The notes: generated by a model from the sequence alone, not told the origin. DNA of 64,000 nucleotides from Octopus sinensis (GCF_006345805.1 NC_043010.1:24118001-24182000); one strand, 5' to 3'. Counted from the stretch's first letter, positions 1,382 to 53,861 are shown. Numbers and translations are program-made.

Positions 1382-2148
1382 GAGAATTCACAAAAAAAAA
1401 AGGAAGACAGGTGGTGTAGACAACAAACAAATGTATTAGTTTAACGCTCGCGAAGTGAAATAAGTCTTTAACGTTTTCAGCCTACCCTCTTCCACCGAAA
1501 GGAACACAGAAAGAAACAGGGAGAAAAAAATAAAGAAAGTGTAGTGTCTAGCGATCTATCATGGAAACAATGAAAGGACAAAGGACAAAGGACAAAGGGA
1601 GAAACAGAAAGAAAAGGGGGAAGAAAGGGAGAAGAGAAGACGAAAGGGGAAACGAAAAGGAGGGAGAGTGAGGCAAGGTAACAGGTGCGTATTAGAGAAA
1701 ACAGAGTAAGAACTACAAGAGTATGAAGAAACGACAATAGGAAAAAGCAGAAAGTACAAAAAAGTTTAGAAAGTATAAAAACGTTACGAAAAGTTCAAAA
1801 GATTCAAATGTCTTGGTGTATTGGAGCGATTCCTCATTAACGGAAGAGTCCAGTGTAATCCATGAGTAGGAGAGGTTCGACTGAAGTGCAGGAGAGTAGA
1901 AAATCCAGGTAGAGAATCCAGGTAGAATAGTCTGAAGTGTAGAAGGTGTAGAAAATCCGAGAAAAGTTCGTTGGGCTATGAGGTGGAGACAGAATCAAAG
2001 TGTTGCGACCACGTGAGCGTGTAATATATGGGGAGAATTCACAGAAACAAAAAACAAAAGATGAAGAGAGGTGGTGTAGACAACAAACAGATGTATTAGT
2101 TTAACGCTCGCGAAGTGAAAAAGTCTTTAACATTTCGAGCATACGCTC
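1382..2148 (-). mobile_element. PLE pLTR/retrozyme-like repeat in partial tandem, with decayed hammerhead
   Basis: gagaattcac...ggtggtgtagacaacaaac...gtattagtttaacgctcgcgaagtgaaa occurs at ~1382 and again at ~2033. The same family is at 19672-19878 and 49752-49933. Decayed HHR on the minus strand at 1465-1502. Confidence 0.6.
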
Positions 2149-2277
2149 ACGACGGGCTTCCTTCAGTTTCCCACTACCAAATCCTCTGGCAAGGCTTTGG
2201 TCGGCCCTTGGCAATAGTAGAAGGTCTGAACCCGGAAACTTGTGGTTGGAAAGCAAGCTTCTTACCACAGAACCACG
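2149..2277 (-). mobile_element. SINE family B, 5' half
   Basis: Reverse-complement similarity to the 5' half of 53862-54266 (gacgggcttc-ttcagtttcc, aaggctttggtcggccc). Confidence 0.7.
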
Positions 2278-2291
2278 CATAAATACGCTAT

Positions 2292-2607
2292 TTTATTTTA
2301 TTTATGCACCCTTTTCAAGCCTAGCCAGGCTAATGGGTCCGGTTTCCCGGCTTCTGTGGCGTATGTGTTCCCCCCAGCTGGACGGAACGCCAGTCCATCG
2401 CAGCATTACTGAAGAAACAGGAAGAAAGAGTGAAAGAAAGTTGGTGCGAAAGAGTACAACAGGGGTCGCCACCAAACCCTGCTGGAGCTTCGTGGAGCTG
2501 AATGTGGTTTCGCTCAATAAACACACACAACGCCCGGTCTTGGAATCGAAACCGCGATTCTCCGACTGCGAGACCGCTGCCCTAACCACTGGGCCATTGC
2601 GCCTCCA
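2292..2607 (-). mobile_element. tRNA-derived SINE
   Basis: Minus strand begins ggaggcgcaatggcccagtggttagg (A box) and contains ggtttcgattcc (B box). Confidence 0.7.
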
Positions 2608-3339
2608 AATACGCTATTAAACAGTCAATATCGAATAATAGCTTTAAAACATTGTAAAAAACTTGCCGGGCAGGAGAAAGGTTTTCTTTTGAAGTCATGT
2701 GATCTTAAAGTCCATTTTCTACTATAGCTGCTCCATAGTAGAAGATGCTCGAAAGTTGCACTCTTGGATTCGTTATGCTTTTTATTTAAACATGCAATGG
2801 TCATGTTTGGATCGCTTTGGTCGTAGATCTTAATCAGAGCTGAACTGGGGAGAAACATCTTATTCGATACCCAGTGTGCAGTATGTTTCATTCAAAATTT
2901 ATAACGATAAGCATTTACTGACGGAATTTTTGAAGTCGGAAACTGTACAGAGTTGCGTCGTACATGTGTGGCCGTGCCTGGCTACGCTTCTTTTATTCTT
3001 CCTTGAGCAAGATGCTTTATTTTACATTTTTCCAGTGCACTCAGATGGCAAAAATTAGTTGCACCTCTATTTCAGTGTAACAGTCTTGTCACATTCTGTG
3101 TCACACTAAGGGTACGCGTGTCTGTGGAGTATTCAGCCACTTGCATGTTAATCTGACAAGCCGGTTGTTCCACTGATCAAATAACCTGGAACACACGTAG
3201 TCGTAACCGACAGAGCGTCAGTGTGAGAAGTATTACCGTAGCGAATTGGTGAAGATATTGATGTTGTTCTTTCTTTGTAATTTTTTTGAAGGAATTCAAC
3301 AAAACTTGAAATGTAAGAATAACAAATTCTTAATGAACT

Positions 3340-50195: not shown

Positions 50196-50584
50196 AGATA
50201 GATAGATAGATAGATAGATAGATAGATAGATAGATAGATAGATAGATAGATAGATAGATAGATAGATAGATAGATAGATAGATAGATAGATAGGTAGATA
50301 GATAGATAGATAGATAGATAAATAGATAGATAGATAGATAGATAGATAGATAGATAGATAGCGAGAGAGAGAGAGAGAGAGAGAGAGAGAGAGATAAACA
50401 GATAGATGGATAGACAGACAGACCGATAGACAGATTGGTAGACAAACAGACAGACAGACAGACAGGCAGGCGTACAGACAGACAGACAGACAGATAGATA
50501 GATAGATAGATAGATAGATAGATAGATAGATAGATAGATAGATAGATAGATAGATAGATAGATAGATAGATAGATAGATAGATA
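50196..50584. repeat. (GATA)n/(GACA)n/(GA)n microsatellite
   Basis: Direct inspection. Confidence 0.95.
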
Positions 50585-51899
50585 AGTTTCTTTATTGGCC
50601 ACACAGGGCTGCACACAGATGGGACAAATTACAAAGTAGAGCTTTTCTTTTGGGGGATGAAAAAGAAAAAAAAAGTGGCGTATGTCTTCGATCAAAAGGG
50701 ATCGTAAGAGGGAAAAAAGAAAGAAAGAAAAAAAGGAAAAGAAACGAAAGAAAAGAAAAAGAAGAAGAAAGAGGAAAAAAGGGGAAGAGGAGTAAAAACG
50801 ATCAATAGGGATCGTGTATCACAGTGTCATGATGTACTTTGTAAAGGGAGAATCAGATAAGGTTTATCCGTGGGAAGAAAAGCCTACGAAAAAGACCACG
50901 ATAACCTCGGTCAATATTGTTATATGTTACAACATTTGTTTGCAAGTGGGTAACCCTCTGTTTTCAATTTCTGGGTTCATAGGATTATGCTCATACGTGC
51001 CATCCTTGCTACATTCACTCATCTTTTTTTGAAACATTCGCTAGACAAAACTTGCCTCTCTACTGTCACTTTCCTTTTCAAGTGGTACTTGAAGAAGTTG
51101 ATGAGAGATTGACCAGAGAGGAAAGTATTTGTCTCCAGTCCTTTCAGACGCGTCCACCAGATACATTCTTTCGCCATAGCCACAAGGATGATGAAAATAG
51201 CTCTTCCTTCCCGTTTGAAGGAAGGAGGCGTGACAACATTGACGATAGACTCAGCTGATAAACCGACTCGTCCCACATGTGACAGCAGTTGTTCGACATA
51301 AGACCACAGGTCGGAAATTGTTGGACATTGCACGAGTGTGTGCAGAACGGTTTGGTCGCTCAGACCGGATCTCGGGCAGGTCGGCCCATTGTTTCTTGAG
51401 CCGTGTCTGTAGAGCTTATCCCGAACGGGTAGCGCTTCTCGGTAGCACTGAAAGGCCAGGGATCTCTGAAAGTTGTCCATGGCCCTGGCCCGGAAGTCGT
51501 CCTGAACAGGCGGGTCAGGTATTCCTCGTCGACATCCAGGTGCGCCCGAGCTCGTCGTCGTACCTCCCCTCCACTAATCCCCTATAGAATGTTTGGGTTG
51601 TGTTGAAGTCACTCAAGGTCGACCCGGGACGGCAGAGTTGCTTGAGAGCAACGCGACACTCGCGGTGCCATTCGCCGTTTCTCGGCCTCTTTTTGATCCA
51701 CGACTGCAGTTCGGTCATGGAGACGAGTTGCGGGAAAGCGTGCCTCACAAACAGCGACCTCACCTGTTCACCGTCGTTTACGTAGAACCTAAGATGTCGC
51801 AGTCTCAGAGCGTGTCTGCGCATCATCAACCACGGCATGCCCAGTCCTCTTTTAACGGGTGTTGACAGCAAATGGATCGCCTGACCATCGGGACGCATC
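50585..51899 (-). mobile_element. L1/Tx1-clade LINE, 5'-truncated (ORF2 C-terminus plus 3' UTR)
   Basis: GLGMPWLMMRRHALRLRHL and a zf-RVT-like ALPVRDKL..TCPRS..QTVLHTLVQCP. AATAAA at 50591-50596 abuts (TATC)n. Confidence 0.85.
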
Positions 51900-53498
51900 A
51901 CGCATGTATACTTTATTTTCAAGTGCAGAAATATGAATAATAAAAACGTAGGCTGGCCGTTATTGTTGTTGTTGAAATTTGTTTGATGTTTAATCGTCCA
52001 AATCAAACTTGAGTTGAAACATGTTGCAATCACAACCATTCCGACATTTTGTACATCGGCATCCCTATTGTGTAATATATTTTGTATATATGGATATATG
52101 ATACGATATGAGAGAAATGGGGCAGCTATTTCTAATCGGCCGAGCGAACATATACAAACTTGCTTGTTCCACTCTGAAACCAATTCATATCCATTGATTT
52201 CACCATAATTGTCGACGGTAATTTATCAGAAATAATTTTCACTCATTCTTCAGAGTTCCTCTGCTTCAGAGAACTGGTTTGTATGAAGAGCAACGTAAGA
52301 TATGAGATACTTAGAGAAAGTGTAATAGATTGTGAGACGAAGACTTCAGGTTACTTATATAGATGGATTTACATTACCATCATTAGAAAAATAGGTTCCT
52401 ACCGGTAATAAAGTTCAAGTTTTACGTTAAACATTAATGAAAACATACTGTATGTAGCTTATATTTAACTTCGGGATCTCATGCACTGGAAATGGAAGCT
52501 GATGCGATAGTACGTCATAAGATTGAATCTGGTTCGTCAGTATCTTTGTTGCTCTTTTTTAAACTTCTTGAAAACTAACTCGCCTACCTCTTCCTGTTTC
52601 TCTCTCGTTCTCTCGACGTAATGGGCGTCCTTTCTCACTTTGTGTTTCCAAGCCGTGATTTCTGAATAGGCTGTTTTCTGCAATACAAACAACGAAAGCA
52701 AAAGCTGTGTCGTGGCCTGGCAGATATAATTGAAATAACACATTGAAAGGTCACCGAGCAACGTCTTCTCATTTGTATGACAGGTCAAACAATCGTGTGA
52801 GAGTAATCATTCTCGGAGGAAATGAGCAGGAAGTTATGGATGTGCGGCAACAATATCTTCCATCCACACTAAACAAACACAAACATACTAACACACACAC
52901 ACACACTCACACACCACATACATATACAGAAATACATCACACTTGCACATACACACACACACAGGCACATGCACACTAGCACACAAACACACACTGGGCA
53001 AACAGTGCATTTGTGTGTACGCATATATATATATATATATACATTCATACATACACACATACACATACATACATTCATTCAAATACAATGTTCACCCATA
53101 TAGACATATGCACACAAATACGCAGACACGTTTAAACCGTACTCTCCTACATATCAACAGGTTGATAAGATCTTCCCAAGTAGACATAGAACGAAATATA
53201 CATGGACATACCTAAATACACACTCTTATAAACTCATTCATACATAAAATTAGAATTCTTATCCGTAAATGCAATTTAACACACGCACATACATAGACAC
53301 ACGCACATATATATATATATATATATATATAAACAAATCAAATTGCGATAAAATAAAAATAATTATAATCGCTGGTATTTGTAACACAAGCCATATATTT
53401 TCCATATATCAGTACATTAAGGCGAAATATGTGCTAGGAACACAGAAGCTGGATAAATTTAGTGAAATGAAGATAAAAACGTTTACTAACTCGGTTAT

Positions 53499-53570
53499 TC
53501 TCAGACTGCAGTTTCTTTCTTTTCAGCAATAAAGATAATTTATTTGCTCAGGGAGAATTCGTCAGTGAGA
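53499..53570 (-). ncRNA. Type-I hammerhead ribozyme
   Basis: UCUCA-CUGACGA-A-UUCU...AGAA-A-GAAAC-UGCA-GUC/UGAGA, with palindromic stem III. Confidence 0.78.
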
Positions 53571-53861
53571 GCCCTGTTTTTCTGAGATCCTAACTCACTA
53601 GAATATATATATTTATTTTATAGAAGGAGCTTCTACAGGACTAGAACTATTTCATTCAAAAGAAATCATCAAGAAGTAATTTACTCTGCTATGTATTGAG
53701 TACCTTATTTACTGTGGTTAACCCCGACTCAACCCGGGACCTACATATATATATATAATATATATATATATATATATAATATATATATATATATATAATA
53801 TAATTATATAATATATATATATATATTATATATATATATATATATATATATTACATATACA

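Follow-up and report, generated by a model that had tools for sequence, protein, structure and literature searches.

Minimal hammerhead ribozymes (min-HHRs) have been described in the pseudo-LTRs of Penelope-like elements (PLEs), with a bulged nucleotide on the 5' side of helix II, activity as dimers, poor cleavage in vitro, opposite-strand motif pairs separated by 100-700 bp and a core covariant U3-A8 (Cervera and de la Pena, 2014, PMC4209133). For the canonical endonuclease-bearing PLE unit, partial tandems, an inverted 5'-truncated copy and a microsatellite bias have been reported (Craig et al., 2021, PMC8557442), while animal non-LTR retrozymes are described as low-GC head-to-tail repeats of 150-450 bp that have no ORF, LTR, PBS or PPT, contain one type-I hammerhead per unit and give rise to plentiful linear and circular RNAs of unit length (Cervera and de la Pena, 2020, PMC7229834). 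Set beside these accounts, the elements in the window, a stretch of 64,000 nucleotides of Octopus sinensis DNA (NC_043010.1:24118001-24182000), belong as a whole to a type already known from these three papers, with one unusual item, the G3-C8 core of the repeat family called D here. Very probably the motifs are minimal type-I hammerheads located in the 3' tails, or pseudo-LTRs, of PLEs with an endonuclease and in PLE-like short ORF-less repeats, and they are predicted to self-cleave, most likely as helix III dimers.

The likeness to the PLE min-HHRs, as PMC4209133 describes them, extends to the type-I topology, the very short or absent palindromic helix III, a helix I of 4-7 bp and a base that is often left unpaired where helix II begins on its 5' side, which is an extra G or A in families D and I and, in families B, G, H and C, an A or U facing another A or U. 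As there, several sequence families share one genome in thousands of copies, mostly solitary and truncated, and hammerheads stand as opposite-strand pairs a few hundred bp apart or in the same sense about 3 kb apart around an ORF. Unlike those described in that paper, however, some motifs carry very long helix II inserts (the paired ends enclose 68 nt in family F, 41 nt in E and 33 nt in H), family D has G3...C8 where the paper has U3-A8, and several Octopus sinensis families form long ORF-less tandem arrays. The PLE unit of PMC8557442 is resembled in its heavy 5' truncation, its partial-tandem pseudo-LTRs with hammerheads within, the inverted 5'-truncated copy directly upstream and the microsatellite insertion bias, although the (TA)n preference in that account concerns Naiads, which are without canonical hammerheads, whereas here it is found in families that have both hammerheads and a C-terminal nuclease.

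All 16 sites listed in an earlier, sequence-only reading of this DNA parse as minimal type-I hammerheads within five bases of where they had been placed, in the order helix I, core, helix II, GAAA, a short self-complementary helix III, U-H and helix I. Each of the stem III palindromes named there (ACGUACGU, ACAUAUGU, ACAGCUGU, ACUGCAGU and ACGU) is present, and the statement that pairing in stems I and II persists although their sequences change from family to family agrees with nine different sequences for helices I and II, all of them paired. The reported density also withstood its shuffle control: a strict descriptor (CUGANGA, 4 bp or more in helix I, 3 bp or more in helix II with one closing mismatch tolerated, GAAA, self-pairing helix III, U-H) matched seven times in the window, whereas 200 dinucleotide shuffles averaged 0.02 matches and never gave more than 1, and the bare string CTGANGA-N6-30-GAAA occurs 13 times with 3.0 expected, a count reached in none of 100 shuffles. 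The canonical core CUGANGA...GAAA...UH is found in the window copy at nine of the 16 sites (13792, 14532, 16455, 20684, 22425, 36056, 37572, 39566 and 53499), with a helix II of only 2 bp at 36056 and 37572; the other seven depart from it by C4 in place of U4 (CCGAUGA, at 34560, in a family with mostly canonical cores, and at 29499, 30042 and 30583 in one array), by G3/C8 (16783, 18315) or by U6 (19769). Among the sites considered decayed, those at about 1465 and 49838 are indeed old copies of family I, whereas the one at 19292 belongs to family J, the majority of which is likewise without A9 and helix I, and at 53630 no consistent hammerhead parse could be made by eye.

Rfam thresholds miss all motifs in the window, where no match to RF00163 reaches the gathering score of 34 bits; when 20 sites were scanned singly, RF00163 appeared at four, always below threshold (25.6, 25.6, 22.2 and 17.9 bits), and for the sites of families E, H and F it is the best Rfam match. 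Pairing holds in 86-100% of helix cells when copies of one family are compared, but compensatory covariation is absent (zero or one two-sided change per family), and the copies are too young for the covariation test proposed with the earlier reading to be informative. Monomer folding z-scores lie between +0.12 and -1.37 except for families D (-3.85) and G (-4.49), the best monomer fold of the latter being a rival non-hammerhead pairing.

Along the window, the family F hammerhead (13792..13898, minus strand; CUGAAGA, long helix II, helix III ACGUACGU, 17.9 bits against RF00163) has its predicted cleavage site after GUC and stands as a single unit. Family A forms an inverted pair, with a left-arm hammerhead on the minus strand (14532..14577; CUGACGA, helix II UGAG/CUCA, helix III ACAUAUGU) and a right-arm hammerhead on the plus strand (16455..16500) recovered by both strict descriptor and parse, in arms (14364-14588 and 16444-16668) that agree at 95%. 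The minus-strand family D motif at 16783..16832 (GUGAACA with G3...C8, an extra G before helix II GUCGC/GCGAC, helix III AAUAUU) is hammerhead-like and sits in an inverted upstream partial copy; the 5'-truncated plus-strand PLE copy of this family (16972..18445) begins with a GIY-YIG-like coding remnant (16978-17311, 84% to the GIY-YIG ORF of the family D locus L220) and continues into a 3' tail with a second D motif (18315-18363, GUGAACA). Two further hammerhead-like sequences follow, a plus-strand family J remnant (19292..19340; CUGAUGC, helix II GUCACA/UGUGAC, without helix I) and a minus-strand family I motif (19769..19806; CUGUCGA with U replacing A6, helix II GAGC/GCUC, helix III ACGU). 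The family E unit (20634..22562) joins a 5'-truncated minus-strand PLE, comprising an RT-like ORF (21728-22156), a GIY-YIG segment (21137-21379) and a hammerhead (20684-20769), to an inverted plus-strand tail copy with its own hammerhead (22425-22510); its arms (20634-20911 and 22279-22562) agree at 95%, and RF00163 scores 25.6 bits twice.

A decayed E-like remnant on the plus strand (25957..26040), absent from the earlier list, keeps the 3' half GAAACAUGUGUC and has lost the CUGANGA half. It lies upstream of a decayed plus-strand PLE coding region (26938..28773), in which an RVT_1 match (27332-27928, E 2.7e-10) is followed by GIY-YIG (28519-28773, E 4.7e-5). The minus-strand tandem array at 29210..30750 is an 86% relative of canonical family C with a period of 541-543 bp and units 97-98% alike, and its three hammerheads (29499-29550, 30042-30093 and 30583-30634, minus strand) all read CCGAUGA, as does the minus-strand family G hammerhead (34560..34611; helix II 8 bp, helix III ACAGCUGU), in whose family U4 is the majority state. 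In the family B unit (36020..37647), inverted arms at 36020-36452 and 37208-37647 (96%) hold a minus-strand hammerhead (36056-36093, CUGAUGA) and a plus-strand one (37572-37609, CUGAAGA), the motifs of this family having a 2-bp helix II with a GCAA loop and a helix III of ACUCAGAGU. Minus-strand hammerheads of family C (39566..39618; CUGAUGA, helix III ACGUACGU, in a single unit at 39366-39810) and family H (53499..53570; CUGACGA, helix III ACUGCAGU, 22.2 bits against RF00163) complete the set.

Across the 2.72-Gb genome, about ten repeat families hold these motifs, with 221-2,291 first-look candidates apiece and 11,779 summed over the ten family searches, in each of which all 40 scored candidates matched; the earlier proposal that the genome hosts a large and diverse set of hammerhead-bearing retroelements is upheld by these ten contexts and first-look numbers. 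The copies are scattered over many chromosomes, and the best 40 per family are mostly 86-99% identical. They share a fixed 3' end, about 35-250 nt from the motif, and begin at variable 5' points, as expected of 5' truncation; copies compared numbered 14 for family A, 39 for family F and 46 for family C. The family-typical core is kept in most distinct copies (A 12/14, B 16/16, C 15/17, D 16/16, E 26/27, F 22/24, G 20/21, H 20/20 and I 18/24), and in families D (GUGAACA with the G3...C8 swap) and I (A6U) that core is non-canonical in nearly all copies, family D alone counting 4,077 exact motif copies.

To judge from their sequences, families B, D and E are the 3' tails or pseudo-LTRs of endonuclease-bearing PLEs. 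Sense-strand similarity to PLE ORFs occurs within 1.5 kb upstream of the motif at 15/30 loci of family E, 9/30 of B and 14/25 of D, and this upstream ORF with RT and GIY-YIG bears out the suggested link to the minimal hammerheads of PLE pseudo-LTRs. The description of the elements as mostly non-coding fails for these three families (6/16 sites), which are tails of protein-coding PLEs. Within the same 1.5 kb no PLE ORF was found for families A (0/12 loci), G (0/19), C (0/30), F (0/20) or H (0/20), and it is shared architecture only that points to a putative PLE parentage for these five. The GIY-YIG domain matches Pfam in the D ORF of L220 (7.1e-6) and in the window at 28519-28773, and in family E at 4.7e-4, which misses the cut-off; RT followed by GIY-YIG is found in the window at 26938-28773 and, with an RT-like ORF, in family E, while for families A, C, F, G, H and I no such coding region came to light. 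In the family B ORF (607 aa), YRDD and a Cys-rich linker occur together with a GIY-YIG-like block, which can be aligned to the GIY-YIG ORF of family D (hhalign E 3e-4, probability 39%). At E<=1e-5 the family B ORF counts 2,228 homologues; neither Pfam nor PDB gives a match, and its profile aligns only weakly to the RVT_1 ORF of the window (E 0.15). At locus L219, direct pseudo-LTRs of 629 bp (99.5%) place two hammerheads 3,425 nt apart flanking the ORF, and at L217, L220 and L221 the pseudo-LTRs are inverted. Opposite-strand neighbours in the ten families are arranged head-to-head in 42 pairs versus tail-to-tail in 3. A (TA)5 or longer tract stands at the 3' end of 28/30 B, 22/25 D and 25/30 E loci, compared with 12/60, 7/50 and 9/60 distal control windows, respectively.

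Families C, F and H are ORF-less tandem arrays of non-LTR-retrozyme type, with hammerheads spaced at 557-559, 596-599 and 397 bp at other loci, one per unit and head-to-tail. A real though lesser possibility is that these families and the array at 29210-30750 are self-standing non-LTR retrozymes and not by-products of PLE insertion, in which case multimeric transcripts would be cut by the hammerheads to monomers of 397-600 nt, closed into circles by a host ligase and turned back into DNA by a borrowed reverse transcriptase. The regular arrays with a single hammerhead in each unit fit such a cycle, as do the canonical cores of most copies, the 8-nt palindromic helix III with predicted dimers and the lack of PLE-ORF similarity upstream of the motifs at any of 70 loci (0/30, 0/20 and 0/20). 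The architecture is that by which PMC7229834 defines non-LTR retrozymes, including low GC, and the palindromic helix III recalls the amphibian retrozymes that require dimers in that account; a preprint (Li et al., 2026, 10.64898/2026.07.22.740005) moreover derives such elements from PLE pseudo-LTRs. However, units of about 559 bp (C) and 598 bp (F) exceed the described 150-450 bp, which only the 397 bp of H fits, and the motifs resemble PLE min-HHRs rather than canonical hammerheads with loop-loop contacts. Furthermore, 4-6 of the 46 copies of family C lose similarity at a single point some 40 nt downstream from the predicted cleavage site and not at the site itself, which we read as candidate array ends, and the arrays are laid out head-to-head (<- <- | -> ->) like PLE insertions; both the break position and this layout fit concatenated reverse transcription of linear RNAs no less well than of circles.

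That these are plain satellite repeats or segmental duplications, with hammerhead-like strings as inert passengers or chance occurrences, is very improbable. The non-significant z-scores of most monomers, the failure of every site to pass the Rfam threshold and the abundance of the broken-core families I and J, which equals that of intact families, would suit this explanation, but it is already disfavoured by seven strict matches against 0.02 in shuffles, by nine unrelated families that have the core and the three-helix geometry in common but not the sequences of the helices, and by 5'-truncated copies on many chromosomes, with RT/GIY-YIG ORFs attached in B, D and E. Even less credible is that the inverted pairs are fold-back chimeras of the assembly. 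Near-perfect inverted arms 1.2-1.9 kb apart, which occur four times within 24 kb and belong to structures said in PMC8557442 to trouble assemblies, would suit that reading, but the same minus-then-plus layout recurs at many loci on different chromosomes with different break points (42/45 opposite-strand neighbour pairs), and opposite-strand joints inside the family E unit are present in RNA- or DNA-derived contigs from two other public runs (20902/22289 in X5 and 20912/22279 in X1).

For the preferred assignment to PLE tails and PLE-like repeats, new copies would be made by target-primed reverse transcription that starts at the 3' end, which would carry the tail and its ribozyme into each truncated copy and often leave a second truncated copy, inverted, on the upstream side. 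The dense cluster of motifs in the window may reflect, as we propose, a preference of the elements for (TA)n microsatellites, in which the window is rich. Where transcripts are multimeric or paired, two hammerheads would join through helix III so that a unit-length RNA is cut out, and in the tandem families this RNA could be circularised, as for non-LTR retrozymes. Cutting would likely take place only when two copies pair. In favour of this, the minimum free energy homodimer joins palindrome to palindrome in five of the ten motifs folded (F, E, B, C and H); against it, the predicted dimer makes no use of helix III in the other five (A, both D copies, G and I).

Compared with the natural U3-A8 covariants described by Perreault et al. 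(2011, PMC3088659) and in PMC4209133, family D too alters both partners of C3-G8 and retains a Watson-Crick pair, which is G3-C8 instead of U3-A8; a single literature search for this pair in hammerheads found only an engineered variant (PMC3884650). Since families D and I have reached thousands of copies with non-canonical cores, an active ribozyme may be dispensable for the spread of these elements, as PMC8557442 likewise suggests.

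All 20 sites named by the sequence-only reading were inspected on both strands. A first strict descriptor, which demanded CUGANGA, GAAA and U-H along with no fewer than 4 bp in helix I and no fewer than 3 bp in a helix II that begins at the core, matched in the window only at 14532 (-) and 16455 (+). A second descriptor, tolerating a long insertion in helix II and a single unpaired position beside the core and requiring a self-pairing helix III, gave seven matches in the window (13792, 14532, 16455, 20684, 22425, 39566 and 53499); 200 dinucleotide shuffles averaged 0.02 matches and never exceeded one, which agrees with the expectation of the sequence-only reading that such motifs would exceed a shuffled control. 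All 16 proposed motifs parse once the core pattern is loosened to [C/G][U/C]G[A/U]N[G/C]A, and then show 4-7 bp in helix I, 2-8 bp in helix II and a self-complementary helix III, and the roughly ten repeat contexts claimed for them are borne out by ten family searches (families A-J), each of which found matches. The cores of these window copies are canonical in 9 of 16, carry C at position 4 in four, and read GUGAACA in two and CUGUCGA in one; the family B pair (36056 and 37572) combines a canonical core with a helix II of just 2 bp and a GCAA closing. Among the sites listed as decayed, 53630 gave no consistent hammerhead parse by eye. The sequence-only reading was thus a correct catch, of an element of known kind that is abundant and diverse in this genome.

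Rfam behaves differently at these sites. The window gave no match at the gathering score, and in a separate Rfam scan restricted to the 20 sites, RF00163 (threshold 34 bits) matched only family E (twice, 25.6 bits), family H (22.2 bits) and family F (17.9 bits). In an E-value scan of the whole window, the best 150 of 365 matches were all microsatellite 'miRNA'. Since all sixteen motifs are missed at Rfam thresholds, genome-wide ribozyme counts derived from Rfam would be far below the true ones in such genomes, a point of consequence for annotation.

The ten genome searches used queries of 121-162 nt around the motifs and returned 40-44 matches each, together with counts of first-look candidates that are lower bounds: at least 2,291 for family E (20684/22425), 1,735 for D (16783/18315), 1,727 for I (19769), 1,497 for B, 1,409 for C (39566), 1,347 for G (34560), 795 for H (53499), 525 for F (13792), 232 for A (14532/16455) and 221 for J (19292). 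Among the full-length matches listed, identity to the window copy is 92-100% for A, B, C, D, E, F, H and J, 90-93% for I and 86-93% for G. Compared column by column, the majority core is canonical in A, B, C, E, F, G and H, although at position 4 of the core the window copy of G departs from its family majority; hardly any copy of D or I has a canonical core. The array at 29210-30750 (hammerheads at 29499, 30042 and 30583) is related to family C at 86%, with C at position 4 in each of its three units. Helix cells are paired in 86-100% of cases within families, and two-sided helix changes number 0-1 per family; the copies are too young for within-family covariation to speak either for or against the fold. 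As judged by sequence comparison, structural support comes from between the families, where nine different helix I/helix II sequences surround one core, in keeping with the earlier claim that stems I and II vary among families while their pairing is kept.

Families B, D and E can be assigned to Penelope-like elements (PLEs). As in the families generally, their copies share a common 3' end roughly 35-250 nt past the motif and have variable 5' starts. In B, one genomic locus (L217) has a 607-aa ORF with YRDD, a Cys-rich linker and a GIY-YIG-like block; the ORF stops about 1 kb short of the hammerhead. This ORF has no Pfam or PDB match, and a Pfam search of the 1.5 kb upstream of B copies found none either. 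At E<=1e-5 a search with it finds 2,228 homologues, PF26215 and PF28514 being among their Pfam accessions; the ORF shares 42% identity over 140 aa with the E ORF, and its profile aligns with the GIY-YIG ORF of D (hhalign E 3e-4). The D ORF is recognized as GIY-YIG by Pfam (7.1e-6) and lies about 950 nt before the D motif, and the window itself holds an RT-like ORF of E with a GIY-YIG block (4.7e-4, just below the Pfam cut-off) about 370 nt before the hammerhead. Sense-strand ORF similarity within 1.5 kb upstream was found at 15 of 30 E, 9 of 30 B and 14 of 25 D loci, and at none of the A (0/12), C (0/30), F (0/20), G (0/19) or H (0/20) loci. A full-length B element (L219) has direct pseudo-LTRs of 629 bp (99.5% identity), and its hammerheads flank the ORF at a spacing of 3,425 nt; about 1 kb upstream of it lies a J head-to-head pair (L219 1285-1562, sense-oriented), an example of element clustering. 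A run of (TA)5 or longer stands at the 3' end of 28 of 30 B, 22 of 25 D and 25 of 30 E loci, versus 14-20% of distal control windows (pooled, 75/85 loci at or beside the 3' end versus 28/170 control windows), with examples in the window at 22540-22620, 37655-37840 and 18500-18590, which suggests either a target preference or a tail made during insertion.

At loci L217, L220 and L221 an inverted truncated copy lies immediately upstream, and over all families 42 pairs of opposite-strand neighbours stand head to head and three tail to tail. These layouts show the same features as those listed for endonuclease-bearing PLEs (PMC8557442), and the unpaired base 5' of helix II and the opposite-strand dual motifs recur among the minimal type-I hammerheads of PLEs (PMC4209133). 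On the strength of these features, the window's four inverted pairs (A, D, E and B) are truncated insertions with an inverted upstream partner. That the pairs arose in assembly is argued against by opposite-strand joints in contigs from other public sequencing runs covering 20600-22530; in these contigs, which may derive from RNA or DNA, E-family word depth is higher over the tail than over the ORF. A new fold-back element was rejected, since the layouts match known PLE insertion features. Contigs of three runs (X5, X7 and X11) skip 73 nt in the E ORF region at 22130-22204, which probably reflects an indel among copies rather than an intron, as the ends read AA..GG on the plus strand and not GT..AG on either strand. 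Two near-perfect palindromes accompany these elements, one at 16861-17083 (96%) at the junction of the D head-to-head pair and another at 18902-19204 (90%) beside family J. The family A arms enclose a 267-aa open frame (15099-15899, +) that has no Pfam match and is absent from other A loci.

In families C, F and H the units follow one another head to tail, at spacings that cluster at 557-559, 596-599 and 397 bp, respectively, and the arrays are frequently laid out as '<- <- | -> ->'. These putative retrozyme arrays have the tandem architecture described for animal non-LTR retrozymes (PMC7229834), and a 2026 preprint derives non-LTR retrozymes from PLE pseudo-LTRs.

The surrounding sequence (C14:24118001-24182000, from a genome of 2.72 Gb in 13,516 contigs) is AT-rich, with 31-39% GC and TA, TG and GA microsatellites throughout, and its ORF remnants belong to eukaryotic transposons (RVT_1, GIY-YIG, Helitron-like and piggyBac-like). 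On the 3' side of the G motif, an RT ORF at 32417-33628 (-; RVT_1, E 9.7e-11) with two in-frame stops has an 85-87% copy at another locus (L009). It was considered as a PLE ORF and rejected: its translation lacks GIY-YIG and ends in a LINE-like C-terminal motif, which we take to be that of CR1/L2-type LINEs, and it was therefore treated as a nested LINE that seems unrelated to the G hammerhead. Further LINE-like RT remnants without GIY-YIG lie at 56046-57703 (-), 51022-52222 (-) and 55382-55783 (-), with RVT_1 at 1.6e-14 and 2.1e-13 and zf-RVT. A piggyBac-type transposase fragment (DDE_Tnp_1_7, E 8.8e-9) occupies 38193-38522 (+), and a 461-aa open frame at 61858-63243 (+; Helitron_like_N, E 2.5e-10) is probably a Helitron remnant. 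About 2 kb of purine-rich GA/GAAA low complexity (3148-5226) produces long spurious open frames on both strands.

The density of motifs in the window would follow from the great abundance of PLEs and PLE-like repeats without ORFs, from the (TA)n that B, D and E abut at their 3' ends, and from the retention of the ribozyme-bearing tail in every truncated copy. From the anatomy observed in these elements we infer steps of reverse transcription, nuclease action and dimerization: target-primed reverse transcription from the 3' end would carry the tail and its hammerhead into each truncated copy, an inverted partner left by the nuclease together with the (TA)n preference could account for the pairs and the local density, and the palindromic helix III may join two hammerheads into an active double hammerhead. 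Minimum free energy homodimers include helix III in five of the ten folded motifs (F, E, B, C and H) and form without helix III pairing in A, D, G and I; monomer folding energies are mostly unremarkable, and their z-scores do not discriminate.

In the hammerhead core, C3 and G8 are normally paired. The D motif reads GUGAACA, with helices I and II intact and GAAA present, and it is placed in the 3' tail of an endonuclease-bearing PLE, as are the canonical hammerheads of B and E. A genome search with a D pattern open (N) at positions 3, 7 and 8 gave 4,077 exact matches versus none for the reversed pattern used as control. Among 100 of these matches listed, 92 read GUGAACA, 95 combine G3 with C8 and the pair C3/G8 occurs in none, and several loop II variants indicate that the motif is kept in more than one subfamily. 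The helix III register is ambiguous in most copies, allowing helix I to have either 7 bp, in the absence of a palindrome, or 6 bp plus an extra base. Judged from its sequence, D is a possible, if rather doubtful, case of a natural hammerhead in which C3-G8 was swapped to G3-C8 and which still works. A literature search for 'G3-C8' returned an engineered case alone; natural U3-A8 core covariants are described in PMC3088659 and PMC4209133. If D is active, this known natural covariation would extend to a transversion pair, and D would offer a natural test of the core-pair rule at thousand-copy scale.

The broken-core families I (A6U) and J are as abundant as the intact-core families, and in vitro cleavage by PLE hammerheads was weak (PMC4209133); the hammerhead may therefore be dispensable for the spread of the element.

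Taken together, 64 kb of an animal-type genome of 2.7 Gb accommodate sixteen hammerhead motifs from about ten families, and families with canonical, G3-C8 (D) and A6U (I) cores, each at thousands of copies, coexist in this one genome, providing a natural test of the need for an active hammerhead in PLE propagation.
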